A stretch of 64,000 nucleotides of DNA from a virus (Duplodnaviria; Heunggongvirae; Uroviricota; Caudoviricetes). A program made the position numbers and the translations under genes. The stretch is taken from IMG/VR virus record IMGVR_UViG_3300017788_000010; one strand, 5' to 3'. Numbering within the stretch: position 1 is the stretch's first letter; each line of letters begins with the position of its first letter. Of this stretch, positions 7,001 through 61,628 are shown in pieces. The notes beneath the pieces were generated by a model. The model ran no database searches. It was given only the letters and a program-made list of their open reading frames with translations, and was not told the DNA's origin.

Positions 7001-10000
7001 CAGAGAACACCGCTACACCCGATACAGGAGATCTAGTCAGCGTACCTTGCAGGCCTGTTCCGCTAGTGAGGGTCGCCGTGACTAGAGTAGACCACGCAGT
7101 ATCTACCGCATTTATGTTATTCAACGCCGTCACAGTAACGGTGAACGGTGAGTTGAGTGCTTGCCCGGTTATCGTAAACGGCTGCGCATCTATTCTCACC
7201 GCAGTAGACGGTGGGACAGAATTCTGATTGTTCAGATGGTTGTACAACTCAACAAACGCAGCAGATACATCGGCAAAGGTTCCGGCACATAGGTACCGGT
7301 CACGCATATGCACACCCTGTGCATATCCGCTACGAGCCTGATTGGCCTCTCTGCTGATGAACACGATATGCGGATTCGGTGATGTCTCGTATATGACATC
7401 TGTGGTGATTATGTGTGTCGGCTTGCTGGGGCCGTTGTGGTATAAACCGATAGCGCGAGAGTAGTCACTATTTGACAATATCACCCCACCCCTAAACGTG
7501 GTGGTTAAGTGATGCATACGACCGTCTTCTGGGGCGGATAGTGTTATTGGGGTGCCTACTAGCCGCCCGCCGTCGCCTACGTTGAAAGAATGCGCAACAG
7601 TGAACGGGCTCTGCACAGCGAAGCTATGCACCCACGCCGCGCTCTGATTAACCTGAGATATGTAAAAATCAAAGGTGTTGTTTAGTTCAACGATGTGCGG
7701 GTTGTTTAGTGCGTAGGTCTTGACACGCTTGCTAAGCCGGTCACCTGACGCTTCTAGCAGCGCCGAGTTAACCAGTCTAGGCGAAGCAAACGCCGTATAC
7801 ACAGACGTTGCCGCCTCGTAACTGTTGCTAGAAAAAGAGATCAGCCTGGACTTGGGAGACGCCTCGGGAGACAGAGAATCAAAACCCGTCTCACACAACG
7901 TATACGCTCCACCAGCATCCCACTTATTCTGGAACAGGTGTCCTTTTCTATCGGCGTAGAGGTAGTTGTAGGCTGAGAAAGTGACTGCGGAGATGGCTCC
8001 GTTATTCTTGGCCGACAATGTGATAGTAGGATCATCGCCTATCACTATGTCCGAGGTCATCGGCGATAGGGTCGTGGTGCCGTCAGGGGCTGTACTAGCT
8101 CCAGCAATGAATCCAATAAACTCACTCTGACTAGAAGCGCCTATGCTAGAGCCTATGCTGTTAGCAAAGTACGCCTTACGCACCCATCCTCCAGATGTAG
8201 CGTAAGCGTACGCCACGTTCGGATCATAGTAGACGCGGTCCCCTCTATTGACTGTAAAAAAAGAAGGCGGAACCTGTTCGCCGTCGGCGTCTGTAAGAGC
8301 AAATTCAGAATTAGCAGATACCTGTACACCATCGCTGATATGGTACCCGTCTCTAGATATATTGTAGAGATCTCCTGCTGAAGACAGTGGTGTGTTAACG
8401 AGTCCAGCAACTGTCCAGTCAGTGGCTGCGTCTCCGTCAAGTGTAGACGTCTTAACCAGATCACGTCCTTTACCAGAGTGATCAAACATAATAGAACCGA
8501 AGGCGTTCTCTAGATCATAGTGCAGAACCATCTCAGCTCTGTACTCAGCAAGCGGTCCTTGGCCTACACCAAGCGGCCCGCTCCAGATACCCGCGCCGCT
8601 ATTGTACCAGCCAGACACAACAGCAGGAGAGGCTGTGTATCCGACAAACACCGTCTCATCCAACACAGCTTCTATAGATCTAGAGGCGGTGGTTAGGTTG
8701 GTGTTTGATCCTATATAGAGCGTACCTGAAAAGCTGGCGCTATTCCCTAGAGAAACCGAGGACGCAACGCTATTGACATATAACGTGCTAGTGCCTGTAG
8801 CCACCACAGACGCAGCTAAGAAGGTGCTGGCGCCTCTAGTGAACGTGGTCGGGGCAAACTGAGGGACAGCTGCGGGGGATATGCGCACGCCGAATCTAAA
8901 TCCGTTCGGCGACAGAACCTGCAATAACGCTTGAGGCCCGCTCTGTGTGCGGAATATAATCGGGCTCATACCCGGCGACATACTGTGCGTCGTCGGTATT
9001 TTCAACCAGGTTCTGAATGAAAACGCGGGCGATAACGCCAGCGTACCTGTAAGCGCGCGGTTATTTGTTAGAGAAACCGAGCGACCGTTCGGTCTGTTAC
9101 CGAAAGAGTTATAAAGGCTATAGGTGTAGAACGGGCTTGTGTAGGTTGATTTAAGAACGAGGTTGGCTAGCCCGTGGTTTGTAGAATAGGTTGAAGCCCA
9201 CGCTGATCCCTTTAACAGCATGGTAGCGCGCTCAGTGGTTAGATAAAGCCTATTAGCTGCTGGTTGCGTATCCGGTCCGTATGCGTGCGCGTACGCCTCG
9301 GGGCCGGAAATAAAGCTGCCTGGATCATATAGCTGCGAAATGTTGTCTACTGCCCCAGAAAAGACGCCGCTTAGGTGGCTCTCACCAACCACAAGGGTAT
9401 CTACAACAGGGTTGCCAGCCACGCTCAACAAAGGAGACGAGGAGATTAGCTGTCCACTAAAAGTCTCCGCCAAACCCGCCGCGTTGTTAAATTCTGTATA
9501 CACCGCCGCCGCCGTCTCGGAGGGCTTTATTAGAGCTAGCAGCCGACGCAGGTCGTCTAACGCGGAAGCGCTCTTGACACTATTCCAATCAAGTTTAAGC
9601 GTGAATAGGTGATGCTTCAGTACAGAAGACAGGCGCGCAGCTAACCAGGTCAGATCTTCCGCACTTACAAGCGCCCGGCCCTCGGCAGGCAGGGTGTCTA
9701 GTCCTGTAAAGGCGTCGAGGCGTCGCGTGGCTCTTGACCATACGGTATAACGCCATATAAGCGGACGGAATACGCCGCCTCCGTACGCACCTGCACCAAA
9801 AGTCAGATCACCCCAACCTGTGATCTTTTCCGCTATAGTAAGGTCTTCTAGGAGCAACTGATGCGGCCCTAGCACCTTTGTCACGCGAATGAGCTGTGTA
9901 GGTTCAGCGTCTACAGTTCCGACAACGTCTAGTGGAACAAACTCGATCTTTATGAGATCGTCCGGACGAACCTCTGCGTCTATAAAATCTACTGAATAGT

Positions 10001-12341
10001 CGCTTAGTATGCCTGTAGCCGAATCGAACGAAGTCGGGCGGCTAATTACTTTGTGTGGCTTACCCGCATCAAAACGATCCGCTATACGGAAATCCGTGCT
10101 AAGTGATTCCGCAAATACAGGAAGCCATTTATTAACAGACAGCTCGCGATCGCCTACCTCTACAAGTGCATTAACCGCATGCAACCGAGGAAGTTGCTCT
10201 CCGTCGCGCACACGAATGGCGGCTCCAGGTATAAGAGGGACGGTAAATTCAGACGACTCTGTATCTGCCGGGCTGATAGAGACAGCTTCTTTATCATCCT
10301 CTTTGACCACGCCCAGCGATGTGCCGGATTCTTCTAGATAAGCAGAGCCCAGCATTATAGACCCTAGATTGACTATGTTGTCAACCAATGAGTTGGATCT
10401 CGATGCCGCGACTAAGGCAGCTACGCGGCGATAGCTTGAATCAGAAGAGTCGTCGTCTATACCAAACAAGGTGCCCCACACCTTGCTCAAGCTGCGCTCG
10501 TCTACCGAGACATTGAATAACCACGCCTTATCTAAGGCAACATCTGAGTATAGATAAGTTAACCCATTCTCATCGACAAGATCGAAATTCTGCCCTTTTG
10601 TCAGGGTGGTGTTTACAACGACTAGTCCATCCTGTATGGCGGCAATATCTACAATCTTGCCTCTATAGTCATAAGCAGAGTCCGCTCTTTCTGGGAGAAC
10701 GTGTTTAAACGGTCGTCCTATCTTCTCTGCGAATACACTTACGAAACTACCTGGCACAAAGAACTCATCGAACACCAAATTCTGGTCTGCGACTGCTGTG
10801 AAGGCCGCATTGTTGAACATACCTGAATCAATAAAAACATCAACAGTAACTTCCGAATCGCCCGTGATCTTCTCGTCCAGAAGAAGGGAACGCGTGGTCT
10901 GCACTCCCTCAGGTATTACAAACTCCTGCTGAATATGCGCATGTGCGGTGATATTGTCAGGAGCATGTGTTAGAAGCGCTGTCAGCTGTGTTCCGGCAGG
11001 GAGCTCTGAAAACGAGATTACGTTATTAACCCGAGTGTAGGTGGCTGTGTCTAGTAACAACCCGTCCGCGTACAACCGTACCCAGTGCCCGGCTGGCGGC
11101 GTATACGGAAGGGTTATGCTGGTCGCATTAGCTGTTAAGGTAACAACATACTTCTCGTGCGCGTGCTCTCTGGAAAGCGCGGCTTCTACACGTAGCCGAA
11201 CACCTGCAACGGGTCTACTACCTAAAACCAACCTATTTTCTAGTATCTGTACCTTAGTTGGGTCGATATTGAAGATAGAAACAAAGGCCGTAGCCGTGTC
11301 TATTGTTCTAGGTAAGGTCAGTCTATTAACTTGCGACCGCGCAGTTACCGTAAACGACCCTTTGTTATCGGTTACACGGAACACCCCTCCAACAGGAAAA
11401 CGCCCCTTATCCAGGCTTATGTCTGTGGCGCTTATGCGTAGAACAGAAGGCGCTAGAGTGAAATTAAAGACCTCATGCACTTCTACCACAGTCAAGGTCG
11501 TCGGAACGATAATCTGATCCTCAGCTATCGCAACAATATCCTGAACAGTGTCGTTCTCTAGAAGAACGCGTATCACCTGTCCAGGGACAAACCGCTTGTT
11601 CCCTATAGGAACTATTGAAGAGTACGTAGTGTTATACGTAGTCTTTACTCTACCCGATATCTCCGCGCTTTCTATGACAACAGAGGAGAGCTCAGGCACT
11701 GCCTCGGCTCCTCCAAGACTCGGGAAGGCTACTTCTGTAGCTAAGCCTGACAAGTCCTGGTAAAAAGGCACAACATCATCAAAACTATATATAGAGACAG
11801 TATCAAGCTCTTCTACCTCCGGCCAGTGCTGTAAAAGAGACTGCTGAGACTGGATATACTCTTTTAGCTTGTACTCTTCTATATAAAACGTCGTGCCACG
11901 GAGCGTGCGGTCATCGGATATAATAGGATCCGTACTCTTGACGTACAAGAAGCTCGGAACGAACCTGCCGTTAAGATACAGCTGCGGATGCGTTAAAAAC
12001 AGGTGCCCAACAACAACCACCTTGTAGTATAAGGGGTTCGTTTCACCCAAATACCGCTGCGGTACGGGAGAGAACGCCTGCTGCATGTAAAAGTGGCTGT
12101 GACCAGGAAAGGTCTTCTCCCACTTATCCAGCTCCTCGTAGACTACTGGGTAGGCTGTACTTACAGGAACAGAGGCAATAGATTTAGCATCATCTATATG
12201 AAATAGACGGCTATAGTCCGACTCCTGAAGCCGAAGCACGGCATCATATATAGATGTGATAACCGGTTTATCTTTGTAGTACTCTCTCCAAAAGGACGGA
12301 AGAGCACCAAAGATGGATGAGGAGTCGAACTTTTTTGACAT
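1083..12341 (-). CDS. Giant virion/tail-fibre-like protein (3752 aa) with S/T-rich repeat regions and a C-terminal right-handed beta-helix (pectate-lyase/depolymerase-like) region
   Basis: Single uninterrupted 11.3-kb ORF. Low-complexity T/S/V/G-rich Ig-like stretches and a C-terminal segment with beta-helix-like NxxG/asparagine-ladder character. All internal opposite-strand ORFs are short and compositionally odd. Confidence 0.85.
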   Translation of the reverse strand: MSKKFDSSSIFGALPSFWREYYKDKPVITSIYDAVLRLQESDYSRLFHIDDAKSIASVPVSTAYPVVYEELDKWEKTFPGHSHFYMQQAFSPVPQRYLGETNPLYYKVVVVGHLFLTHPQLYLNGRFVPSFLYVKSTDPIISDDRTLRGTTFYIEEYKLKEYIQSQQSLLQHWPEVEELDTVSIYSFDDVVPFYQDLSGLATEVAFPSLGGAEAVPELSSVVIESAEISGRVKTTYNTTYSSIVPIGNKRFVPGQVIRVLLENDTVQDIVAIAEDQIIVPTTLTVVEVHEVFNFTLAPSVLRISATDISLDKGRFPVGGVFRVTDNKGSFTVTARSQVNRLTLPRTIDTATAFVSIFNIDPTKVQILENRLVLGSRPVAGVRLRVEAALSREHAHEKYVVTLTANATSITLPYTPPAGHWVRLYADGLLLDTATYTRVNNVISFSELPAGTQLTALLTHAPDNITAHAHIQQEFVIPEGVQTTRSLLLDEKITGDSEVTVDVFIDSGMFNNAAFTAVADQNLVFDEFFVPGSFVSVFAEKIGRPFKHVLPERADSAYDYRGKIVDIAAIQDGLVVVNTTLTKGQNFDLVDENGLTYLYSDVALDKAWLFNVSVDERSLSKVWGTLFGIDDDSSDSSYRRVAALVAASRSNSLVDNIVNLGSIMLGSAYLEESGTSLGVVKEDDKEAVSISPADTESSEFTVPLIPGAAIRVRDGEQLPRLHAVNALVEVGDRELSVNKWLPVFAESLSTDFRIADRFDAGKPHKVISRPTSFDSATGILSDYSVDFIDAEVRPDDLIKIEFVPLDVVGTVDAEPTQLIRVTKVLGPHQLLLEDLTIAEKITGWGDLTFGAGAYGGGVFRPLIWRYTVWSRATRRLDAFTGLDTLPAEGRALVSAEDLTWLAARLSSVLKHHLFTLKLDWNSVKSASALDDLRRLLALIKPSETAAAVYTEFNNAAGLAETFSGQLISSSPLLSVAGNPVVDTLVVGESHLSGVFSGAVDNISQLYDPGSFISGPEAYAHAYGPDTQPAANRLYLTTERATMLLKGSAWASTYSTNHGLANLVLKSTYTSPFYTYSLYNSFGNRPNGRSVSLTNNRALTGTLALSPAFSFRTWLKIPTTHSMSPGMSPIIFRTQSGPQALLQVLSPNGFRFGVRISPAAVPQFAPTTFTRGASTFLAASVVATGTSTLYVNSVASSVSLGNSASFSGTLYIGSNTNLTTASRSIEAVLDETVFVGYTASPAVVSGWYNSGAGIWSGPLGVGQGPLAEYRAEMVLHYDLENAFGSIMFDHSGKGRDLVKTSTLDGDAATDWTVAGLVNTPLSSAGDLYNISRDGYHISDGVQVSANSEFALTDADGEQVPPSFFTVNRGDRVYYDPNVAYAYATSGGWVRKAYFANSIGSSIGASSQSEFIGFIAGASTAPDGTTTLSPMTSDIVIGDDPTITLSAKNNGAISAVTFSAYNYLYADRKGHLFQNKWDAGGAYTLCETGFDSLSPEASPKSRLISFSSNSYEAATSVYTAFASPRLVNSALLEASGDRLSKRVKTYALNNPHIVELNNTFDFYISQVNQSAAWVHSFAVQSPFTVAHSFNVGDGGRLVGTPITLSAPEDGRMHHLTTTFRGGVILSNSDYSRAIGLYHNGPSKPTHIITTDVIYETSPNPHIVFISREANQARSGYAQGVHMRDRYLCAGTFADVSAAFVELYNHLNNQNSVPPSTAVRIDAQPFTITGQALNSPFTVTVTALNNINAVDTAWSTLVTATLTSGTGLQGTLTRSPVSGVAVFSGLSFNTYGNKTIEFSSGTLTDTVDVVVPYPAPVITGRSPTTAAINYGTQSVAIFGQDFLPESTVNVSSVPVPSANVTYVSPGRINLALQLVPPPGLRRITVTNPTPGGGTSNFVGFLVTNPAPIILSPHYLQLGTVPLFWNKGQAEFITVTAFQSPSNAIATAADGLFKVNVYTGINQYVSTFSASPVAGIATVQPVIATAGTYRIDATHSPVTLGPARPAPLSQFLTVYDPDPFVAQVSPSWFAPSATAAPLINVFGSNFTSAGSILFNNSAKPTNFVSPGHVQAFLNVGDIAVQGTYPVQVRVPTAANQVSNSVFINVSPIFVPPVVVSPKALTLSFPSGQFNAGATVPFTSTVTGAGGALATYAAGNLRLTLSPLNDPLYPPFVGALTATAPLKFTNSVLTGSFSVNSFGQYRLTASYSPAIGEPVVTPASGTFSTLVSAPVVQRASPFTYSPLGTQVVSLIGSGFTNTAAVLYYTIPNASDVVTRTTTFVNSNKVTFTLSPSDYPAAGNRVAYTVVSQPFSTGNSGVQAITLATPPSTSPWYLSFQSDPTNPASSSQIPTAIRVGGGWVSGPQQVVVNAFTREDMIATTATGAAVLITSPQSAMFTGTLTLWQSFSSGQAVFPAASLAVSSYGQYVFKATHSPAGGVGYVMSPTGLSSVVNVLNYVPSITSVTPSSVSAGVGAVVVSIKGNRFLQDSPRGMTISIAGTNRNFTYLSPREVLLSLQPADTNNAGTLYANLTNYFSSATPPYQAAVATINVIGAAYNPNEETLSPTIEVSPNGWRRRLPTLGPWNTPNAPFGIYSASLRDAMRNSYPSASIPNPIIPVTNGLGAAEVVEVSAGAYAGWAYEIGSALNRIGMHRGVSRQQPYIVRAKKRPVGSVIEFEPVLIANPQVQTAVMADSGTTLTATVTSAGIDRPSFMTFLGLKVMCDGRDGLNWGVGDNANGTADYFYRDIKWVKCAFLGRWDYRTISLTPRRHTRSMLATTLAAQQQFNHLGNLITTPALGAGDSPLYSMNIQISEALACFSSELPGYTVNQSPAVANSLLVSAAVDQPVSLKGVIQGIPPSSRTPLSDPTGTIFRYLNPDIYTTGNGVNDYRVTVRPVIASGALASCVWGGGVNSGSNDVFANVEQAQGATPEILSTSPFWTSTRVLPFGELTRGLSYRANTTVPSRPLSGDIYAGVWSYQNVRFRKAGRYAFEAIVTRNGSQVPGSLPQYFFVNVTTGGVSQPDTRWEVMARNPVIPYLTTVSRSVPFSIPILVSLLEDTTPPAGHGLAGSINYRTPAIGISSQTNHGVTGITDSFMVTISSPDYLRKWRWAYADGTVYSPNLAGIGKGGFATNMVDGFITPLTPTTAAATVYGAPMLKCLSPLPAGVRQSVTINVRIRPGMSPTVRPGAYNFKASAPLSIVVDLSPTASAVGIPQAALTLPLTTETRGRSSLKAFTIEGGMRVFNSSGSLRPTSYAGRYFAPGWPGDPNHLNFELDLRRWWPSPVKNITYPDHGHSTKWGKQVYTHEGYYFLSSLVAYMQKEHNIYTHNCFGIHVENSTFRYAGRLNLQFTWRRWDNYPQPYDNSVPGRAGWITGNNRLNYSSIGTDLVIKGNKFADSGLNDGNVHVGITEHGGTTYMDNNYHLNGFNSELRHVFGNGGSSGTAFLVMYSGSAFKPTGNKQDMSWYFPYMTDAAGPVLNPVDLNQYTRGLPIISPGLYQHFSPGHPAYYIFTITRQMLLGGANDQNCIAYRDGTVWPESTTDINNPLHPYRNRAYGHPTWSTAGKTDYIEITPPWAQGDPLYPSGVVRLGAPQTNYPGAHQLGDFYMRNNIMYTNVYGANTVELVNASDSPSKQVRAPWVTPGQTPIGLRQAASFLTGANPGAGTRTGVFIGGPRTVYMEGNDIRHAPRPVVRISNVTTANSESSDPPALNVSGFDNNFVGGRDYFGHAPSQTGSASQQMSFNLFRALTSPLPGPPGQLF

Positions 12342-14340: not shown

Positions 14341-14801
14341 TGAAGCTCTTAACTTCTCTTACTATTAATAAGGTACTGCCTGGCCTGCAGATATACGAGG
14401 CGACGACTTTAGGTAACCACGCACTGTCGAGCAGATATCTATGGGGAACGCACGCGGCAGCCTCTAAATTACTCTGTCCTGTATTCACTATCCGCACCGA
14501 GGAGCGAGACGCTGAGCCGATATACATTGTTGGCGCGTTTGCGCGATATCTGTCGTATAGCGGCAACCTGGTAGAAAAATATGCGTCTGTTAGAGACGAT
14601 TTTATGGACGCTATTGATGAGGATATGTGCGTGCTTGTTAGAGACATACAAACAGTTTCACGTGAGTGGATGCACTATTCAGCCGACACTACAGTCAAAA
14701 GAGTGCTTGTAGATATACGGGGAGATTTAATAGACGGTGTACGAAACGGGAAAATCGATGTGTACGCTACTATCGACGATCTTCCTCCTGACTTTTATTA
14801 A
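14341..14801 (+). CDS. Hypothetical protein (153 aa)
   Basis: ATG lies 2 nt after the motif. The ORF track starts at an upstream TTG inside the motif. It converges on the next minus-strand gene. Confidence 0.5.
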
Positions 14802-15369
14802 ACGTTCTGTTACTTATGGCATCAATAGCCTTGCCTTGTAGATGACCCATAACAAAGGGAGCGGTTGCGGCGCCTACTGTTTTCCAGCTAGCCGGGCCTA
14901 TAAAACCTCTAACGGTGCTGGCCGCTCTGCGTCCAAAAGATCGGTTACCTGCCGGACCCAAGCCTTGTGTGGGTCCGGTAGGCGCACTCTTAGTTAGAGC
15001 TCCCGGGGTGCGTGAGGCTTTGGCAAGCCACATACGCAGGGCGCGAGGAGCGGGCACGAAAGCTTGTTTCTGCATGTCTTCCTCGTCCCAACGACGCATA
15101 TCGTTGCGCATATTTTTTGTCATGCGGTGTACCGCGTACGTCTGTCCTACGCCAAGCGCGACCGGTGCGGCAACAGCTGCCGCAGAATTCATCGTAAGAG
15201 GGACCGTTGCTCCTCTAGCAAAGCGCGCCGCGCCTCCAGCAAACCCGCGCTGCTTAGCTTTTTCAGTAAGCCATGCTCTAGCTCCACGAGTCACAGGAAA
15301 AACAGCTGTCTTATCAAGCCCGGCTGAGATAGCGCTCCCTGCAAGGGACGTTATGTTAGATTCCTTCAT
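14770..15369 (-). CDS. Ala/Gly-rich basic virion-associated protein
   Basis: Minus ORF 14770..15414. The internal Met 16 (MKESN...) is preferred as start, giving a 14-nt overlap with the upstream helicase gene. The overlapping plus-strand ORFs are GC-frame artefacts. Confidence 0.5.
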   Translation of the reverse strand: MKESNITSLAGSAISAGLDKTAVFPVTRGARAWLTEKAKQRGFAGGAARFARGATVPLTMNSAAAVAAPVALGVGQTYAVHRMTKNMRNDMRRWDEEDMQKQAFVPAPRALRMWLAKASRTPGALTKSAPTGPTQGLGPAGNRSFGRRAASTVRGFIGPASWKTVGAATAPFVMGHLQGKAIDAISNRTFNKSQEEDRR

Positions 15370-54959: not shown

Positions 54960-55070
54960 TAATAGCTCTCCTATAGCTAGTGCCTTATAAGTGTAGCACC
55001 GGATAGGCCCTAAAAGGTAAAAAAACCATAAAAACACACCCATTAAATAGGGATCAAATACAGACCAAAA

Positions 55071-55140
55071 GGGGGTATTTTAGGCCAAAAAGGGCTATTT
55101 TAGGCCAAAAAAGGGCTATTTTACGCAAAAATAGGCCTAT
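55071..55140 (+). repeat. Three and a half tandem copies of a 21-nt unit GGGCTATTTTAGGCCAAAAAA
   Basis: Seen directly: gggggtattttaggccaaaaa / gggctattttaggccaaaaaa / gggctattttacgcaaaaata / ggcctattt. Immediately upstream of motif copy 5. Confidence 0.6.
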
Positions 55141-55156
55141 TTGTGGCATAAGCTAT
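55141..55156 (+). promoter_or_regulatory. Conserved promoter-like motif TTGTGGCATAAGCTAT (copy 5), candidate promoter of the RT/Ubl operon
   Basis: Motif copy, 58 nt upstream of the 55215 ORF and about 430 nt upstream of the reverse transcriptase. Confidence 0.45.
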
Positions 55157-55214
55157 ATGAAGCAAGGGTATGTCGCCCAAGCCTCAAAAACCCCCTAAAT
55201 AGGAAAATCTCCGA

Positions 55215-55493
55215 ATGGAAACCACCCTCATCACTGCCAGCTCGAAGACCCCGTGGACGCTCGTCGCCTTGGCCGCTGTGGGTGCCTTGACGGGTACCAC
55301 GGCGTGCGTCTTGGGATACCGCCAGGGCAAGAGACTCACACGAGCCGAGGAGCGGCTCGACACGCAAGGTCAGGCCATGGAAGAGGTCCGCGCCCTCACG
55401 AGCGCGGTGAACACGCTCGTGAACAACAAGCCGGGCCGGAGCGCCGCGAAGCGCAAGCCGAGCGCCAAAGCGCGCAAGTCGACCTCGGCCTGA
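55215..55493 (+). CDS. Small single-TM membrane protein with basic C-terminal tail (92 aa), GC-rich
   Basis: TM segment PWTLVALAAVGALTGTTACVLGY and basic tail KPGRSAAKRKPSAKARKSTSA. The segment is about 66% GC, so a non-coding structured RNA cannot be excluded. Confidence 0.4.
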   Translation: METTLITASSKTPWTLVALAAVGALTGTTACVLGYRQGKRLTRAEERLDTQGQAMEEVRALTSAVNTLVNNKPGRSAAKRKPSAKARKSTSA

Positions 55494-55501
55494 TGAAACG
55501 C

Positions 55502-55544
55502 AAAGACGCACGCCATAGTGGCGTGTGTCTTTGTTTTTGTTTTA
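55502..55544 (+). terminator. Rho-independent terminator or attenuator hairpin upstream of the RT gene
   Basis: CAAAGACGCACGCC-atagt-GGCGTGTGTCTTTG (14-bp stem, one G-U) followed by TTTTTGTTTT. Confidence 0.6.
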
Positions 55545-55582: not shown

Positions 55583-56569
55583 ATGACACTAACACTGGAT
55601 ACTGAAGAGATAACTAGTGCGCACTATAAAACCATAGTTATCCCCAAAATCCGTCTTATCGACGGAGAAGAGCGTCGTGTAGGGCAGCGCATAATACACG
55701 AGCCGTGTGAGGAACTCAAGGCCCTGCAGAAAGAAATACTGCGGGAGATCGAGGAGTGCCGGTCTGCTTTTACAAGCAACGTGTCGCATGCTTTTACAAA
55801 AAATAGAAGCATAGTCACGATGGCTGCCCCACATGTAGGGAGCAGGTATCTAGTAAAAGTGGACATAAAGGACTACTTTCCTTCTATAGATAAACAAAAG
55901 GCGCGGGTAGCCTTATTAAACGCAGGCTACCCGACAGCCTTGATAAGAAAAATTCTGAAGTACTGCTTCCTTAATGATGTGCTTCCTCAGGGAGCGCCGA
56001 CCTCACCAGCCATAGCCAACGTAGTTGGTAGGATCATAGACAAGCGTATGCTCGGTCTAACCAAAAAATGGCGGTTACATGCCCGACCTGTTAGACGGGG
56101 AAGACGGAGTACAGCTGTCACAGATACATTAAAAAACATGAGCAGAATAGAGCCTATCGTATACACACGATACGCGGATGATCTAGTTTTTACATCAGAC
56201 TATCCCTTGCTACATCACATACGCTATCCAGTAACATACATATTGCAGCAATGCGGGTTTACGGCTCATCCAGACAAGGTTGTGACAGCGTCTTCGCCTA
56301 GACGGCTGGTCGTTTGTGGAGTGACCATAAACAGCAAGCTATCTAAGCCTAGGCCCTATAGACGACGGCTGCGTGCTATGGTCCATAGGATGTGGGTAGA
56401 GACTGTGACGGGGTCATCGAGATCCGGAACCATAATCGACGCCGTTACAAATGAGCCGGTAACAATAGAACAATTGTGGGGGCAGGTAGCCCATGTTTAT
56501 CAAATAAACCCGACTCAAGCCATCCCCTTAGAAATAAAACTCCGTGAGATAAAAGAAGCGCTCAAATGA
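55583..56569 (+). CDS. Retron-type reverse transcriptase (328 aa)
   Basis: RT motifs: SIVTMAAPHVGSRYLVKVDIKDYFPSI (motifs 1-2), LPQGAPTSPAIAN (motif B'), YTRYADDLVF (motif C, YADD), and the retron-like RLVVCGVTIN segment. Confidence 0.85.
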   Translation: MTLTLDTEEITSAHYKTIVIPKIRLIDGEERRVGQRIIHEPCEELKALQKEILREIEECRSAFTSNVSHAFTKNRSIVTMAAPHVGSRYLVKVDIKDYFPSIDKQKARVALLNAGYPTALIRKILKYCFLNDVLPQGAPTSPAIANVVGRIIDKRMLGLTKKWRLHARPVRRGRRSTAVTDTLKNMSRIEPIVYTRYADDLVFTSDYPLLHHIRYPVTYILQQCGFTAHPDKVVTASSPRRLVVCGVTINSKLSKPRPYRRRLRAMVHRMWVETVTGSSRSGTIIDAVTNEPVTIEQLWGQVAHVYQINPTQAIPLEIKLREIKEALK

Positions 56570-57345
56570 CAACACAGTTACCGACAGATGTCGCAAGCAG
56601 ACAAAAAAGGCTAGTCGTCATAGACGGCGACGCAACCCACGTATATAACCTACAAACTGAGAAAACAGTAAGCACGCTGGACTTTTTCTCTAAAATACAC
56701 ACAGAAAGCAGAGTAGTAAAGACCCCCATACTGCCGTTCGGCTGCATACGCTATGCTAGCACCAAGACAACACAGCAGTATGTTCTGTCTTTCCCGCCCA
56801 CTTTCATATCGGCTACATTCTTAGACGGTAAGGAAATCTACAACGTAGGCCTTCCGTTCTCAGTGATCATAATCAATGCCCGCAATCAATCAATTATTGA
56901 TAGCGTTGCGCTATATCTGTCTAAGGGGCCGATAGTATCGGAAGATACCGAAGTGTTTATGACTGCTTTACCTAATCAGTACGATAGTCAGTTGTGCTGC
57001 ATGGGTAATGGTTTCAACAGCATAGCTACAGGAAAAACACCTATCCTACAAAGGGTGAGCCAAGTATTCCCGTATATACAAAACAGCTCTTTCAACGAAG
57101 ATCTGCCGGTACCGACAGCGTACATACCTAAAGAAGTGCTTCCGGAAGCACTAGCAGCGCATCCCAAGGTAGACGAGCTGCCGGCCTACATAAAGGGCGT
57201 TGTGCGGAGGCCTCGCGACTTTGGTCCTAACAGAGTTGCGTTAGCGTGTAGAGCCGCATGGACAATCCTAAATCCCAGCCCCGACGCCGCTTTGAAGCTA
57301 GGCTATGTCTCGGCCGGTAAGCTAAGTAGGCTAATACAACAATGA
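56566..57345 (+). CDS. Hypothetical protein (259 aa), operon partner of the RT
   Basis: ATGA overlap with the RT stop. No recognised motif. Confidence 0.5.
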   Translation: MTTQLPTDVASRQKRLVVIDGDATHVYNLQTEKTVSTLDFFSKIHTESRVVKTPILPFGCIRYASTKTTQQYVLSFPPTFISATFLDGKEIYNVGLPFSVIIINARNQSIIDSVALYLSKGPIVSEDTEVFMTALPNQYDSQLCCMGNGFNSIATGKTPILQRVSQVFPYIQNSSFNEDLPVPTAYIPKEVLPEALAAHPKVDELPAYIKGVVRRPRDFGPNRVALACRAAWTILNPSPDAALKLGYVSAGKLSRLIQQ

Positions 57346-57701
57346 ATGCTGAAGTAGAGGCTAATCTAAACAGAATAAACACCCTACGAGATAAAGGCAG
57401 CAGTTTCGTAGCGGTTCCTGATCTAGTAAAGGAAGTGATTGGTGTGCTACAAACTGTATCAAATCCTCAATTCAAAGCGCACATAAGCACCTCACGTAAA
57501 GCCATACGAGAGGCTTTTCCACACATACTCAGACTATGTCCTACTATGGCCGCGTGTAAAGCCAGAGACGGCATTACTTTCCATGATCTACATTACCAGC
57601 TACAACACACCACCAATGAACGTGAGGAGATAAACAAAAGAATCTCCACCGCGATAAACCACTGTGACAACTACCCAAGCACCTCAACTACTATACGGTA
57701 A
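57342..57701 (+). CDS. Hypothetical protein (119 aa); weak candidate for a divergent E2-like component
   Basis: Coupled start/stop. Contains FPHILRLCP with a Cys, but no confident UBC signature. Confidence 0.45.
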   Translation: MNAEVEANLNRINTLRDKGSSFVAVPDLVKEVIGVLQTVSNPQFKAHISTSRKAIREAFPHILRLCPTMAACKARDGITFHDLHYQLQHTTNEREEINKRISTAINHCDNYPSTSTTIR

Positions 57702-59439
57702 GGACGGTAAGCTCTACGTCAAAAAGACCGTAGGGCCTACCGAAAACCCTCAATTCGTGACCATTCTACCGGCCAGAGAAGAAGATATACCGGAACCTAG
57801 AATAGCGGGCCCATCGCTGACGCTAGGGACAGGATTCACCAAAATATCTATGCGTACGATGCTATTCGTACACGCCTACTTTAAAGAAATCTATGATAGA
57901 TTCAAGGCCGAAGCTATCGTATTTTTCCACAAAGATCCGGGCAGCACAGAATACACAATCCTTGTTCCTGAATCATTCTCAGCGACTGCGGCTAGCTTAA
58001 CATACGAGCACGCACAGCCTAAATACTGCACCATCTGCCACGTATGCTCTACTAACGAAGACATAACCACATGCCCTAGATGTGGTACGGAAACGATGGC
58101 GCGCACGCACATCTACGGCACAGCACACAGCCATGGATCTATGAGCGCGTTCCACTCGGGAACGGACGATGAGCACGAAAAGGGACAAACCGGCTTCCAC
58201 ATAACCTTTGGTAACGTGGATAAGGGCATGTTCTCGTTGTGCCCCAGCTTTGTAACAGCATTGTTAGGGTACACCGTAAACGGTAAAGGTACGCGCCACT
58301 ACCCCGAGCTAGAGGAGCTAGTAGAGCTACCCTCCCCTTTAACACCGGCGGATCGTCAACTGATAGAAATATGGACGTCGACGATCCTGAACGAGGATAT
58401 AGCAAGAAAGCTATCAAAAGACTGCGTCGCAGTTATAGAAAAAAATACAAGCCGGGTGGTGTTTCATGGGGCGAATTCCTCCGTAGCCGAAAGGTGGGTC
58501 AGCTTCCAAGGATCGCGACGGGAGCTGGAAATATATCCTATTGCCAACCTGCTGAAAAGCAAACAAACGAGGAGCAACAGACCGTACAGGACTGGTGCGA
58601 ACACCACGCAAGCAGCAGAACAACGTCGTACAGCGGAACCTACGGGTATACCGGTTCGTACTACGGGTGGGGCTCGTACAAGAGTTACGGCTACGGGGAA
58701 GCTTCCGGTATTGATTGGAGTACCAGGTCAGAACCCCGGCGAGGTCGTGAAAAACCAGACGACGCTCCCGGTTGGTGGGGAGACAGCGACTGGCGAGCGT
58801 TCGACTAGCACCCTGCATCTACAAAGTGAACGCGTATGGGATATCGGAGAGTTCACAGTAACAGTAGATCACGACTATGACGGTACCGAGGTTAGTAGAG
58901 GGAAGAGCGACTACATCCCTTGGCCGAATATGTTGGATGATCAGCCTGCTGAATTCCGGTTCTTACAGGTGTGGGAAGTCATATTCATTGCGCAGCAGAT
59001 ATCCGCGCTTATTGGCGAAATAGTTCCTAAAAAGACCGGTGGTATCGACAGAGACGTCGACACCGCACTAAAGGATCTAGCAAACAAGCTGGACCTGTGT
59101 TTCGGTACAGGAACGGCCGCCGAGAGTATTGTATCGGAATATACCAACGGCGGTACGGATATAGAAGAGATCGTCCAAAATTCTATAAAATGTGTCATGA
59201 GAGAGATTGAAGGATCGGAGTACAATACCGAACATCCTTTATCAGTTCTCAAGTCTATTGGATCTTTGTTTTTAATAAACTTCCTAGTAGAGGATCTGCT
59301 ATTCTGGGCAGATAAACACAAGATCATAAACACCAGCATCATAGACGACATAGAAGAAGAGTGCAACAATGTTGGTAATGCTCTACTGAAGCAATACACA
59401 AAAGAGCTCGAAGACGCTGACGGAAACATACCCGAATGA
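57664..59439 (+). CDS. JAB/JAMM (MPN+) metalloprotease domain protein with inserted CxxC...CxxC zinc ribbon and large C-terminal extension (591 aa)
   Basis: JAMM motif HSHGSMSAFHSGTD (H-x-H-x7-S-x2-D) with an upstream Glu. Zinc ribbon CTICHVC...CPRC. Confidence 0.75.
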   Translation: MTTTQAPQLLYGKDGKLYVKKTVGPTENPQFVTILPAREEDIPEPRIAGPSLTLGTGFTKISMRTMLFVHAYFKEIYDRFKAEAIVFFHKDPGSTEYTILVPESFSATAASLTYEHAQPKYCTICHVCSTNEDITTCPRCGTETMARTHIYGTAHSHGSMSAFHSGTDDEHEKGQTGFHITFGNVDKGMFSLCPSFVTALLGYTVNGKGTRHYPELEELVELPSPLTPADRQLIEIWTSTILNEDIARKLSKDCVAVIEKNTSRVVFHGANSSVAERWVSFQGSRRELEIYPIANLLKSKQTRSNRPYRTGANTTQAAEQRRTAEPTGIPVRTTGGARTRVTATGKLPVLIGVPGQNPGEVVKNQTTLPVGGETATGERSTSTLHLQSERVWDIGEFTVTVDHDYDGTEVSRGKSDYIPWPNMLDDQPAEFRFLQVWEVIFIAQQISALIGEIVPKKTGGIDRDVDTALKDLANKLDLCFGTGTAAESIVSEYTNGGTDIEEIVQNSIKCVMREIEGSEYNTEHPLSVLKSIGSLFLINFLVEDLLFWADKHKIINTSIIDDIEEECNNVGNALLKQYTKELEDADGNIPE

Positions 59440-60191
59440 ACGGAGCTATAACGATTGTGGGCGCCGGCGGCACCGGCTATCATCTAGCGGAGCCGCTAGT
59501 AAGATTTGTTAACTACACAGCAGCTCTGAAGACACCGGATATCTTCATCATAGACGGTGATCGGATAGAGGAAAAGAATTATGAGCGGCAGCACGCTGCC
59601 GGATCTAGTGGAGGCATGAAAGCGGATGTTCTTGTAAACAGCCTATCTGAAAAGATAAACTACAAGGGTCGTCTCTCAGCTATCGCATCCTACGTATCTC
59701 CACAAACACAAAACAATTCTATGATAAAACAAGCACTGGGAAACGGCAGCACCGTTTTCGTGTGCGTTGACAATAATCCTTCAAGAATATTTATTGAGGA
59801 TCTACTGAATCAGCACAGTGACTTTACCCTGATATCAGGCGGCAACGATTTATCGTCTGGTCAGGTAAACATCCATATAAAAAGAAAAAACGCGTTGCTA
59901 ACCCCAGCGCCTTCAGAAATCAATCCAGAGATACTGGAGGACGACGAGGCGTTCCCTGATGAGGCTGCCTGCACAACTGCGGTTATTTCAGATCCGCAGC
60001 TGCTGTTTGCAAACTTATCGATAGCGACATCTATGCTAAATCTATGGTACAGCTCTGTGCTACAACACGAGCTACACAACCAACCTATTCCCACCGACGT
60101 TATTAACGAGGTGGTGATCAATGTTTTGACCGCGTCTGCTCATCAGTTCAAAAGAACAAGTCACAAAAAGAGAGTTAGTTCACATGTCTAA
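59436..60191 (+). CDS. E1-like ThiF/MoeB-family adenylyltransferase (251 aa)
   Basis: Rossmann IVGAGGTGYHL and the family signature IIDGDRIEEKNYERQ (D-x-D-x-V-x-x-S-N-L-x-R-Q-like), followed by VFVCVDNNPSR. Confidence 0.75.
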   Translation: MNGAITIVGAGGTGYHLAEPLVRFVNYTAALKTPDIFIIDGDRIEEKNYERQHAAGSSGGMKADVLVNSLSEKINYKGRLSAIASYVSPQTQNNSMIKQALGNGSTVFVCVDNNPSRIFIEDLLNQHSDFTLISGGNDLSSGQVNIHIKRKNALLTPAPSEINPEILEDDEAFPDEAACTTAVISDPQLLFANLSIATSMLNLWYSSVLQHELHNQPIPTDVINEVVINVLTASAHQFKRTSHKKRVSSHV

Positions 60192-60648
60192 TGTAAATCG
60201 TCCCATGTTCAGCCCGTCAAACGGCGCTCGCATCAAGTACCAGAACAGCCCCACGTACGATGCGGTGACTGGAGCGGCTATCTCGTATGGAGAAGACCGT
60301 TCCAACCCGCAGGCGTTCGATCAGGTAACGGGTCTTCCCGTAGGCACACAGGCCACCGTGAATATCACTGGGGCTGTGCCGGCTGCGGCTCCTGTTCAGG
60401 AGCCGGCGGCTGACGAAGGCGGCTTCGCGACTGTCACGAAGATAGCCGATTCGTCATACGAGACTCCTCCGGTGATCGAGGTTGCTGAGGGTCTCACTAT
60501 TCGCCAAATCCGTAACATACACGGTAACGAGCTCTCGTTGAGCCCGTCCATGATCGCTCTGGTAAACGGCGAGCAGGTCGGCGATAACGAGGCTGTAAAC
60601 GAAGGCGACAGCGTCGTGTTCAAGGAACCGGCCAAGCGGCGCGGTTGA
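60184..60648 (+). CDS. Ubiquitin-like (ThiS/MoaD beta-grasp-like) protein with disordered N-terminal region (154 aa)
   Basis: C-terminal 60 aa (VIEVAEGLTIRQIRN ... ALVNGEQVGDNEAVNEGDSVVFKEPAKRRG) fit the ThiS/MoaD pattern (VNGE ... DGDEV ... terminal G). It ends in a single Gly. Confidence 0.55.
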   Translation: MSNVNRPMFSPSNGARIKYQNSPTYDAVTGAAISYGEDRSNPQAFDQVTGLPVGTQATVNITGAVPAAAPVQEPAADEGGFATVTKIADSSYETPPVIEVAEGLTIRQIRNIHGNELSLSPSMIALVNGEQVGDNEAVNEGDSVVFKEPAKRRG

Positions 60649-60668: not shown

Positions 60669-60741
60669 GGGCACTCATGTTCCACGGTGGCGAGGAGGCT
60701 TTGCAAGCCACCTGCGTTGGGTTCGATTCCCATAGTGTCCA
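60669..60741 (+). tRNA. Degenerate tRNA-Ala-like gene (anticodon UGC); possibly a pseudo-tRNA
   Basis: 73 nt with canonical numbering: acceptor GGGCACT/AGTGTCC (one G-U), G18G19, U33, anticodon TGC, A37, T-loop TTCGATT, 5-nt variable loop. Weak points are the D-stem (2 of 4 pairs), one A-A in the anticodon stem, and C8. No CCA encoded. Confidence 0.4.
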
Positions 60742-60867
60742 CTAAGTAAACTGGTAGTATTTCTTGGGGTAGCTCGGATCTGGGCTGCCTAGTATCAATA
60801 AACAAGAAATGAAGGCGGAGCGCCTTCTACCTATAAACAGATGGGTTCAGTTCCCATAATGTTCGCC

Positions 60868-60976
60868 ATAGTATTAATATTAATATACTACAGCCGGTGA
60901 CAGACCCCCTTCGGAAAGCTTCGCTATCCTCGGCGGCTGCCACCGGCTTCCGCATATTAATATTAATACTATATTA
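60868..60976. repeat. GC-rich hairpin element (about 68 nt) flanked by two copies of the AT palindrome (A)TATTAATATTAATA(CT)
   Basis: Flanks ATAGTATTAATATTAATATACTA and CATATTAATATTAATACTATATT. Core has inverted repeat AGCCGGTG ... CACCGGCT. Confidence 0.55.
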
Positions 60977-61144
60977 AGTTCCAGTTTACGCTCACCATAT
61001 AAACACTATGACCCAAGGATCAAAGAAAATCTGAAAAGATTTCGATGTCGCTGCGACATCATAAGAAATATCTACACACATGACAAAGGTAGATCTCCAG
61101 ACGGAGGTGTACACAAAGTCGGAATGTGTAGGGAATCACACCAG

Positions 61145-61532
61145 CTGAGAAAAATTAACTAATTAATATACAATTAATCGTATACGTTACATTTTCCCTG
61201 AAGAACAGAAAAATCGCGATTTGAAATAAATTTAGCTTAGTTTCAAGAAGAAGCGGTCGTCAATAACCTCCCCAGAAGAACTAACTTTGTAACTATTTCG
61301 ATGATGAAAAGGATCAACAGAGCTCACTCACGGCTAATAAAATAGCCTGAGCCTGCTGACCCGTTTTCCTCATACAAAAAGTTACAAAAGTTAGTTCTTC
61401 TGGTGTGTTTATTCACAACCGTTCTTCTTCAAACTCAAGCAATAAATTTAAACCAAATCAAAGAGTTTTCTGTTCTTCAGGGAAAATTGCACAATACGAT
61501 TAATTCTATATTAATTACTGTAATTTTCTCAG
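61145..61532. repeat. Large imperfect palindrome (about 390 bp; arms about 75-80% identical), candidate origin/packaging/cruciform element
   Basis: Left arm CTGAGAAAAATTAACTAATTAATATACAATTAATCGTATACGTTACATTTTCCCTGAAGAACAGAAAA ... and right arm ... TTTTCTGTTCTTCAGGGAAAATTGCACAATACGATTAATTCTATATTAATTACTGTAATTTTCTCAG are reverse complements. Inner segments (AAGAAGAAGCGGTCGTCAATAA ... / ... TTATTCACAACCGTTCTTCTT) also pair. Confidence 0.6.
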
Positions 61533-61628
61533 TCCGGTATGATTCCTTTAAAACTACACATTCCAACTTTGAATACACCTCCGCCAGGATCCCTAGGTTC
61601 GATCCTTACGTAAGAGGTAAAAAAAAAA

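Follow-up and report, generated by a model that had tools for sequence, protein, structure and literature searches.

Comparison with described systems

Retrons are made up of a reverse transcriptase (RT), an msr-msd non-coding RNA (ncRNA) and an effector, and have been classified into 13 types (Mestre et al. 2020, PMC7736814). Among the prokaryotic operons that encode ubiquitin-like (Ubl) proteins, operon type 6d brings together genes for a JAB protein, an E1, a small Ubl whose C terminus is a Gly, an E2-like protein and one further protein (PMC1779556). Here we analyze a locus that carries modules of both kinds, located at positions 55583-60648 on the plus strand of a 64,000-nucleotide stretch of DNA (the window) from a Caudoviricetes virus, IMG/VR record IMGVR_UViG_3300017788_000010. 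Its six genes encode a retron-type RT, an E2-like enzyme, a small protein, a JAB/JAMM metalloprotease, an E1-like adenylating enzyme and a Ubl protein, and the whole system, including a candidate ncRNA, spans ~5.4 kb. It is well supported that the six genes represent one operon of a conserved mobile-element family. Several other described systems invite comparison. PRTRC is a ParB-related, ThiF-related cassette of plasmids and integrative elements, and we infer that operon type 6d corresponds to the PRTRC cassette of TIGRFAM/NCBIfam. Bil (BilABCD, operon type 6e) and Bub are bacterial ubiquitination-like anti-phage systems, and the type II cyclic oligonucleotide-based antiphage signaling system (CBASS; operon type 6b) combines a CD-NTase with the E1-E2 protein Cap2 and the JAB protein Cap3.

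We compared the window locus to each of these systems. As in retrons, there is an RT that matches retron profiles at ~1e-54 and contains the YADD, xAxxH and V(T/C)G regions, a nearby candidate RNA predicted to fold into small hairpins and a single long hairpin within a closing inverted repeat, and a modular layout in which an RT/ncRNA module is accompanied by accessory genes. The accessory module, however, is a four-part Ubl-conjugation system, which lies outside the 13 described effector types, and the candidate ncRNA is found downstream of the RT, occupying the RT-E2 gap in bacteria and following the entire operon in the window. In addition, the window RT prefers no single retron type, scores below the NCBIfam retron cut-offs and has the variant motifs MAAPH and VCG. 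The closest described core to the Ubl module is operon type 6d. Here, the correspondence extends to a standalone E2 (Prok-E2_D/PRTRC_B-like), a PRTRC_A-like JAB, a ThiF-type E1 with PRTRC_ThiF as its best match, a small Ubl ending in a C-terminal Gly, one additional small gene and carriage by mobile elements. Scores against the PRTRC models are nevertheless far under their cut-offs (24 vs 102, 63 vs 145 and 25 vs 131 bits, the last for PRTRC_B on the bacterial locus L038), and no ParB-related partner is encoded among the six genes, the wider window not having been scanned for ParB. The RT and the ncRNA are additions to the 6d/PRTRC arrangement, and the phage JAB differs by its zinc ribbon and a C-terminal extension of ~390 aa.

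Bil and Bub share a full Ubl cascade with our locus. In contrast to them, the E2 here belongs to Prok-E2_D, the PRTRC-type E1 and JAB each have a gene of their own, the operon includes an RT, and it is the phage or mobile element itself that encodes the system. We obtained no Bil or Bub match with PADLOC, although PADLOC-DB 2.0 (2023) may predate some models of these systems. Type II CBASS likewise pairs a polymerase with E1, E2 and JAB functions, but our operon has an RT in place of a Pol-beta-fold CD-NTase, encodes E1 and E2 as separate proteins, includes a dedicated Ubl and lacks both a CD-NTase and a cyclic-nucleotide effector. The RT-Ubl operon is thus a member of none of Bil, Bub and type II CBASS.

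The original prediction, made from the DNA sequence of the window, held that this combination is described neither as a retron type nor as a Ubl system, and our searches agree. No published description of a retron or RT together with ThiF, JAB, Ubl, E1-like or PRTRC proteins was found in the searchable full texts, which exclude most subscription journals. The retron classification paper (PMC7736814), a review of prokaryotic RTs (PMC8632793) and the myRT paper (PMC8934634) do not contain the terms ThiF, JAB or ubiquitin, and RT and retron are absent from the founding Ubl-operon paper (PMC1779556). The polyvalent-protein paper mentions neither RT nor retron, and a 2020 eLife paper on conflict systems contains RT/retron and Ubl terms in separate contexts only. 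PADLOC 2.0 and NCBIfam 20.0 hold no model for an RT-Ubl system; with PADLOC, genes 2, 3, 4 and 6 have no match and genes 2-6 match no retron effector, and all NCBIfam matches in the operon stay below cut-offs. What appears to be new is therefore a retron effector class or, equally, an RT-bearing branch of the 6d/PRTRC-type Ubl systems.

Conservation of the RT-Ubl linkage

The operon starts with the RT gene (gene 1, 55583-56569, 328 aa), followed by the gene for the Prok-E2_D-related, UBC-fold E2-like enzyme (gene 2, 56566-57345, 259 aa), a gene for a small protein without recognizable family (gene 3, 57342-57701, 119 aa), the JAB/JAMM metalloprotease gene (gene 4, 57664-59439, 591 aa, GTG start), the ThiF/E1-like gene (gene 5, 59436-60191, 251 aa) and the gene for the Ubl beta-grasp protein (gene 6, 60184-60648, 154 aa). 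All five junctions overlap, in line with the translational coupling originally proposed, but the accompanying description of the overlaps as "ATGA or similar" fits only loosely: RT/gene 2, gene 2/gene 3 and JAB/E1 share 4-nt ATGA overlaps, E1 and Ubl overlap by 8 nt, and gene 3 and JAB by 38 nt, with JAB starting at a GTG codon. The long gene 3/JAB overlap is kept in the related loci L005, L027 and L028, and similar overlaps in the relatives measure 11-47 nt. We next compared the proportions of nonsynonymous (pN) and synonymous (pS) differences between the window and L005. The pN/pS values are 0.11/0.66 for the RT, 0.28/0.87 for gene 2, 0.34/0.63 for gene 3, 0.20/0.66 for the JAB, 0.11/0.78 for the E1 and 0.20/0.60 for the Ubl. 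As pN is far below pS in all six cases, the genes are real and under purifying selection. Amino-acid identities across the six genes range from 53 to 82%, with RT (81%) and E1 (82%) being the most conserved proteins of the operon.

L005 contains counterparts of all six genes in unchanged order. Outside the window/L005 pair, we found the arrangement RT-E2-(small)-JAB-E1-Ubl around all seven of the nearest RT relatives that we sampled (P0160, P0164, P0167, P0168, P0173, P0183 and P0179; 31-51% identity). Four of them come from phage-like loci syntenic with the window (L027, L028, L029 and L040) and three are bacterial: the L038 cassette adjoins DNA methylase, HNH and PDDEXK genes, the L039 cassette is located inside an island with integrase, DnaN, PDDEXK, RadC, DUF932 and DUF4942 genes, and L030 is a contig from a Victivallaceae metagenome-assembled genome (MAG). 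A metagenome scan with a bacterial-type E2 returned eight loci, and an RT is found upstream of the E2_D gene in 5/5 of those that include upstream DNA (L042-L046). By scanning with the E1, we located a group of distant jumbo phages (L020-L026, contigs of ~175-179 kb) at E1 identities of 23-32%, with the cassette order RT-(LigA)-E2-small-JAB-E1-Ubl(s). A control RT with 33% identity (P0223) has an unrelated gene neighborhood, and in a rough neighbor-joining tree the cassette RTs fall into three neighboring groups that are distinct from the other retron-type RTs. The RT-Ubl linkage is thus more than local chance. The gene order that the original prediction wished to see elsewhere is thus present in L005, the nearest RT relatives and distant jumbo phages. 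The prediction that the system is carried by phages was right for the phage lineages with a cassette, but the bacterial integrative-element-like loci (L038, L039 and L030) show that it is not phage-specific.

In the jumbo-phage cassettes of L023 (4115-11915), L025 and L026, RT and E2 are separated by an inserted NAD-dependent DNA ligase gene, which L021 lacks. A RusA gene is located downstream of the jumbo cassettes and an exonuclease-like gene before them. Two beta-grasp-like genes follow the jumbo E1, and the product of the longer one ends in ...SKG|LAD or ...TKG|CRR, a putative JAB-processed precursor.

The E2-JAB-E1-Ubl core also occurs without an RT, in the phages L001, L002 and L010-L019 and in MAGs of several phyla (L031-L036). 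The Ubl core is thus the older, autonomous module, a subset of which was joined by one RT clade. Most RT-less phage cassettes have the Prok-E2_D-like domain near the N terminus of a ~850-870 aa protein (Pfam 3.6e-6 in L001); the E2-bearing protein is shorter or split in L002, L014 and L018, and overall sizes range from roughly 500 to 870 aa. Downstream come JAB, E1 and a Ubl with the C terminus ...GKKG, mostly with a second E1-like gene of ~300 aa. In L001 (5703-12118) and L002, the RT-less cassette is located between a radical-SAM gene and genes for a multisubunit RNA polymerase. The cultured 217-kb Bacillus phage vB_BauM_KLEB27-3 (L050, OM634661.1, 167647-169897) has a JAB with a PRTRC_A domain beside a ThiF, surrounded by genes for an RNA ligase, a polynucleotide kinase and a CCA-adding enzyme. 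The 14.5-kb region inspected around them has no annotated RT, and a cultured carrier of the RT-bearing cassette was therefore not found; KLEB27-3 is a possible entry point for experiments on the RT-less phage Ubl core.

It could be argued that a solo retron-like RT and a 6d/PRTRC-like Ubl cassette have come to lie side by side in clustered mobile cargo and are not coupled at all. The many RT-less Ubl cores would fit such a scenario, as would LigA separating RT and E2 in jumbo phages and the extra genes found between JAB and E1 in L039. We consider this very improbable: the order RT-then-E2 is present in 7/7 close RT relatives and in 5/5 metagenome loci with upstream DNA, and persists to E1 identities of 23%; start and stop codons overlap in the window lineage; the tree groups the cassette RTs with one another; and in bacteria an ncRNA is located inside the cassette. 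The outcome that the original prediction had named as fatal to it, a non-retron RT without conserved linkage, is not what we observe, as linkage is seen in every close RT relative sampled.

Gene 1 encodes a retron-type RT

Pfam RVT_1 matches gene 1 at 2.7e-17, above its cut-off. The PADLOC retron RT models give 1e-54 to 1e-31, the top matches being spread over types XIII, III-A and II-A. Among NCBIfam models, those for retrons score between 1e-46 and 1e-34, with retron_St85 at 2.7e-46 (158 bits, below its cut-off of 235), compared with 2e-11 for the group II RT model and no better than 1e-3 for Drt3a and Drt2. Of 4977 RT homologues named by their sources, nearly all are called retron-type RTs. 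The motifs that had been quoted for this protein are all in place, with DIKDYFPSI at aa 94, LPQGAPTSP at aa 134, YADD at aa 197 and VCGVTIN at aa 244.

The assignment to retron-type RTs made in the original prediction stands as far as the retron models are concerned, whereas the retron signature motifs of the window RT are variants, MAAPH replacing NAxxH and VCG replacing VTG. We inspected these positions in 124 aligned relatives. The N of NAxxH is N in 89 and M in 10 of them, the T of VTG is T in 101 and C in 17, and the A, H and G of the two motifs are invariant or nearly so. Bacterial cassette RTs carry NAAPH or HAxxH and VAG, ITG or VTG. YADD, xAxxH and V(T/C)G are kept in the cassette RTs that we examined, except for the RT of jumbo phage L023, which has MLG. 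Its profile matches place gene 1 among retron-type RTs of the retron/retron-like clade; the catalytic YADD is intact, and the RT is apparently active.

The Ubl-conjugation genes

Gene 2 had no match when searched directly against all family libraries used, and a single-sequence homology search returned one homologue. However, a LPN....C.G motif is common to gene 2 and to proteins encoded upstream of JAB-E1 in other viral loci, and we seeded a family profile from these motif proteins. The profile recovers 202 representative clusters. Of 89 aligned family members, 61 match Pfam Prok-E2_D (best 3.3e-15), and the sole invariant column corresponds to Cys145 of the window protein, located in LPNQYDSQLCCMG and the candidate catalytic residue. 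AlphaFold2 (AF2) modeling of gene 2 depends on the depth of the alignment: nine sequences yielded a pLDDT of 34, while the 89-sequence alignment produced a model with a pLDDT of 93.3 and a predicted UBC-like fold. Searching PDB sequences with the E2 family profile returned chance-level matches only (E >= 0.4). The Prok-E2_D matches, the invariant Cys145 and the confident AF2 model obtained with the family alignment together identify gene 2 as an E2-like enzyme of the Prok-E2_D family with Cys145 as candidate catalytic residue. The hidden E2-like fold that had been suspected in gene 2, 3 or 6 thus maps to gene 2.

Gene 3 has no family match in Pfam, PADLOC, NCBIfam or PHROG. Its product is 53% identical to its L005 counterpart, and sequence similarity is detectable only inside the window lineage. 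A gene for 80-130 aa nevertheless occupies the position between E2 and JAB in the RT-bearing cassettes whose maps were read, with the exception of L029; positional equivalents of gene 3 are found in L027, L028, L040, L038, L039, L021, L023 and L026.

In gene 4, the JAMM motif and zinc ribbon reported earlier were both recovered. The full HxHx7Sx2D motif spans aa 155-168 (HSHGSMSAFHSGTD at aa 155), and the CxxC...CxxC zinc ribbon is inserted at aa 122-140. Pfam Prok-JAB matches above its cut-off (2.1e-6) and Zn_ribbon_NOB1 at 0.006, and NCBIfam PRTRC_A at 1.8e-5 (24.4 bits, below its cut-off of 101.8). The C-terminal extension of ~390 aa is absent from the bacterial homologues, which measure 239-282 aa; it could serve as an E3-like or substrate adaptor. 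No relative of the JAB protein was found among PDB sequences. In related loci, JAB homologues are located upstream of the E1; the exceptions are L017, which is truncated by its contig, and L037, where the E1 match is weak.

The E1 signature noted before is likewise present in gene 5, with GAGGTG at aa 9 and DGDRIEEKNYERQ at aa 40, and Pfam ThiF matches above its cut-off (7.2e-12), so that RVT_1, Prok-JAB and ThiF all pass their Pfam thresholds. An alignment of the E1 family indicates that GxGxxG, Cys110 and Cys179 are conserved. The best NCBIfam match of gene 5 is PRTRC_ThiF (2.2e-17, 63.2 bits, below its cut-off of 144.75). Matches to the ThiF and MoeB models (4e-7 to 8e-5) are far below their cut-offs, and PADLOC models of Cap2-type E1-E2 proteins are matched weakly, at 5e-4 to 0.02.

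The beta-grasp protein encoded by gene 6 has a low-complexity N-terminal half and ends in ...KEPAKRRG, with the terminal Gly that had been predicted. Its Pfam ThiS match (0.0028) is sub-threshold, and it is homologous to the Ubl of L001 (E = 4e-4). C termini in the Ubl family read ...AG[KRE]KG or AKRRG, this motif being either terminal or followed by 1-20 further residues. Such a pattern would be expected of a conjugatable Ubl that is matured by the JAB in some lineages. The Ubl homologue in L029 lacks the terminal Gly and ends in ...VHKSQSN.

An E1, a JAB and a beta-grasp protein could in principle belong to a ThiS/MoaD/CysO-type sulfur-carrier cassette placed beside the RT by accident, a concern already raised in the original prediction. 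The weak matches of the E1 to ThiF and MoeB models and of the Ubl to ThiS would be in agreement with this idea. Yet the best matches of E1 and JAB are PRTRC models rather than the ThiF/MoeB equivalogs, an E2 with an invariant Cys is present as well as a JAB, and neither the operon nor its flanks encode ThiG, MoaE, CysM, rhodanese or another biosynthetic partner. The cassette occurs exclusively in phages or mobile elements, and a sulfur-carrier origin of the cassette thus seems hardly credible to us.

Candidate template RNAs

Downstream of the Ubl gene, we identified a 244-nt candidate retron-like ncRNA (60746-60989, plus strand) by its fold stability and by base pairing kept relative to L005. 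It begins 4 nt after a plus-strand tRNA-Ala(UGC) gene (60669-60742), which lies between the Ubl gene and the candidate. The closing stem is formed by a1 (60746-60754, GTAAACTGG) and a2 (60981-60989, CCAGTTTAC) and encloses three small, msr-like hairpins and a 105-nt, msd-like hairpin (60868-60972). The minimum free energy (MFE) of the unit is -98.4 kcal/mol (z = -8.2), and 0/200 shuffled sequences were as stable. Its counterpart in L005 has the same architecture (z = -7.4), and RNAalifold on the two sequences yields 62 pairs, 13 of which are kept through two-sided changes. These include the entire AT-rich outer stem of the long hairpin. Analogous units are closed by TCCGGTA/TACCGGA in L027 (z = -5.5) and by GCCGGTA/TACCGGC in L028, and a YGGTAG motif near the 5' end is common to the ncRNA units. 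In four lineages the ncRNA candidate abuts tRNA-Ala: it follows the tRNA (3' side) in the window and L005 and precedes it (5' side) in L027 and L028. RNase Z or RNase P may thus define the ncRNA ends. The 60746-60989 unit is a good candidate for the template RNA of the RT.

A T-arm-like hairpin (ATGGG TTCAGTT CCCAT) at 60841-60857, inside the ncRNA unit, resembles the 3' part of the tRNA, and ARAGORN does not call the near-identical tRNA of L005.

The bacterial cassettes have a GC-rich gap of 220-470 nt between RT and E2, which contains a structured RNA (L039 8856-9302, equivalent to L046; L042-L045; L038 8838-9063; L030 1956-2255). A good alignment was obtained for five homologous gaps; with RNAalifold it yields 132 predicted pairs, and 16 of these persist through two-sided changes. 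The RNA is divided into two domains, both of which combine small hairpins and a single long hairpin with a long-range closing stem. As far as predicted folds can tell, this is the msr-msd layout of retrons. The RNA seems to represent a separate, new ncRNA family. As the RT and E2 genes overlap in the window, there is no RNA of this type at the corresponding position.

Proposed function and alternatives

The core of the original prediction, a retron-type RT coupled to a Ubl-conjugation set in one unit, is supported by our analysis and reinforced by the E2 and the conserved linkage. We propose that this unit, together with the ncRNA, forms a two-module conflict or establishment system of mobile elements, a reading that we regard as evenly poised between right and wrong. 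We infer a function in defence, counter-defence or establishment. In this mechanism, the RT would copy the long hairpin of the ncRNA into an RNA-DNA product resembling multicopy single-stranded DNA (msDNA), and the complex of RT and product would act as the sensing or gating module, with the Ubl machinery as output. The E1 would adenylate the C-terminal Gly of the Ubl and hand it as a thioester to the E2 cysteine, from where the Ubl would pass to its protein targets, belonging either to the host or to a rival element. The JAB would trim Ubl precursors that have C-terminal extensions and would reverse conjugation. The system may act early after the element has entered the cell, against host defences or competing elements, because the operon heads the early/replication arm of the phage (with DnaB and ribonucleotide reductase genes downstream in L005), behind a conserved promoter-like motif, and because the bacterial copies are located among establishment genes of integrative elements (RadC, DUF932, DUF4942, PDDEXK and methylase).

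Several observations weigh against this proposal. The ncRNA candidate does not occupy the canonical site directly upstream of the RT, and an Rfam search of the 53-64 kb region of the window and of the bacterial loci returned no relevant match, which counts against retron membership. The fold of the L028 unit, which is truncated, is not significant (z = -0.9). The msr-like parts of window, L005, L027 and L028 are not meaningfully alignable, and a covariance model was for this reason not built. In the jumbo-phage lineage there is no obvious room for an ncRNA near the RT and we saw no candidate. The cassette is moreover syntenic and has co-diverged across the whole phage lineage, with RT identities down to 36-38%, which looks more like a core phage function than accessory defence cargo. 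Finally, its neighbors (replication genes, a giant palindrome, and LigA and RusA in jumbo phages) are equally compatible with a role in DNA metabolism.

The giant palindrome is imperfect, ~495 nt long (61096-61589) and located between the ncRNA candidate and the next gene. Its RNA form has a MFE of -228 kcal/mol (z = -21), and the structure is kept despite sequence divergence in L005 (6022-6524) and L029 (~14975-15340). It is preceded by a promoter-like CATAAGAAATATCT at ~61061 and a GGTAG motif at ~61087. The palindrome could be a replication origin or a second RT template. The contigs of L027 and L028 end ~600-900 nt after the Ubl gene, possibly at the palindrome. In L029, the hairpin motif GGCGGTAGCGCC occurs at 14348, 14922 and 15428 in a 1.7-kb non-coding stretch after the Ubl gene; shortly after each of the first two copies comes a long hairpin, and the giant palindrome is one of these two hairpins.

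These features bring up the alternative that the RT serves DNA metabolism. It would then produce primers or hairpin DNA for replication, end maintenance or establishment, using the 105-nt hairpin and possibly the 495-nt palindrome as templates, and the Ubl system would regulate or assemble the machinery. Consistent with this, the cassette is syntenic and vertically inherited in the window, L005, L027, L028, L029 and L040, heads the replication arm and is followed by the palindrome in the window, L005 and L029. The LigA, RusA and exonuclease-like genes of the jumbo cassettes, and the two L029 copies of GGCGGTAGCGCC that precede long hairpins, point in the same direction. On the other hand, characterized retron-type RTs are defence or toxin-antitoxin-like rather than replicative (PMC8632793), and the RT-less core of many related phages (L001, L002 and L010-L019) indicates that an RT is not generally required. 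The bacterial copies are found among accessory cargo genes, and the palindrome may be a replication origin unrelated to the RT. We thus consider a DNA-metabolism role quite unlikely.

Alternatively, the operon may work like type II CBASS, with the RT rather than the Ubl module as effector or signal generator. E1 and E2 would conjugate the Ubl to the RT or to the RT-ncRNA complex, thereby priming or activating it, and the JAB would reverse this, in parallel to Cap2 and Cap3 acting on the CD-NTase; the active species would be complementary DNA (cDNA) or msDNA, for example as a decoy for host nucleases or as toxic DNA. A mobile operon that unites a polymerase with E1/E2 and JAB is already known (6b, Iyer 2006), and the weak matches of our E1 to Cap2-type E1-E2 models (5e-4), the status of the RT as partner added to an older, autonomous E2-JAB-E1-Ubl core, and the high conservation of RT and E1 in the operon would all suit such a scheme. 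However, a separate Ubl with a conserved C-terminal Gly implies that what is conjugated is not the polymerase's own C terminus, it is evident from the RT-less cassettes that the Ubl module has its own output, and nothing in the evidence marks the RT as a target. This alternative is possible, though on the unlikely side.

The RT product itself might even take part in the conjugation chemistry, with the Ubl being covalently attached to msDNA, cDNA or RT-linked nucleic acid, or with msDNA guiding the E2~Ubl to particular targets that are bound to nucleic acid. We regard this reading as improbable. If true, it would amount to nucleic-acid-directed ubiquitin-like tagging in prokaryotic mobile elements, with the 495-nt palindrome as a second, unusually long template.

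Retrons and bacterial Ubl systems (Bil, Bub and CBASS Cap2/Cap3) are active topics in immunity that have so far been treated apart, and they are joined here in a conserved operon that spans at least two distant groups of phage lineages and bacterial integrative elements. Should the coupling be functional, protein tagging would constitute a new class of retron effector, reverse-transcribed DNA may control or direct Ubl conjugation, and a first mechanistic handle on the long-uncharacterized 6d/PRTRC cassette would become available. The fixed early-gene position in lytic-looking phages raises the question of offensive viral Ubl tagging. Clear catalytic residues are at hand for mutation: the RT YADD, Cys145 of the E2, the HxH of the JAB and the terminal Gly of the Ubl.

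Genome context and upstream elements

The window belongs to a very novel phage-like genome that encodes a baseplate wedge protein, a helicase and four tRNAs. A 3752-aa open reading frame (ORF) on the minus strand (1083-12341) has no PHROG match, and the same holds for most large ORFs of the structural region, including those of 827 and 823 aa, indicating that the phage is very distant from described groups. The operon region returned no megablast match among GenBank phages; tblastn gave only distant matches with the RT or E1 and none with a jumbo-type E1. IMG/VR scans with the single gene 2 protein and with the RT alignment gave no match, and the window lineage seems to be missing there. We found the same element on a 144.7-kb contig and on several metagenome fragments.

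The transcription unit is headed by a small GC-rich ORF (55215-55493, plus strand, 92 aa) encoding an N-terminal transmembrane helix and a coiled coil. A promoter-like motif, CATAAGCTATATG (55147-55159, plus strand), is located upstream of it and is preceded by ~20-bp direct repeats resembling AAAAGGGCTATTTTAGGCC (55067-55150). CATAAG(A/C)(T/C)ATATG sequences also precede the unit in L005 and L029 and, two copies each, in L027 and L028. The motif is probably a lineage-specific promoter with operator-like repeats. The GC content of the small ORF is 64-67%, compared with ~48% for the genome. Similar GC-rich ORFs with a transmembrane helix precede the RT in L005, L027 and L028, and L029 has a small ORF in that position. 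PHROG Rz-like spanins match it weakly (0.007). Since pN (0.52) is close to pS (0.55) in comparison with L005, its protein sequence looks unconstrained, and it is uncertain whether the small ORF is part of the RT-Ubl system.

Between the small ORF and the RT start, we found a terminator-like hairpin with a 16-bp stem and a T-run (55500-55534, plus strand). Relative to L005, four positions of the stem differ and yet remain paired, two with changes on both sides. A similar hairpin is present in L028 and none in L027 or L029. We had considered this site, the canonical one upstream of the RT, for the ncRNA and rejected it, the hairpin there being terminator-like and absent from L027 and L029. The hairpin is followed by a conserved TTGACT...TAGGCCAGTAAAC-ATG leader.

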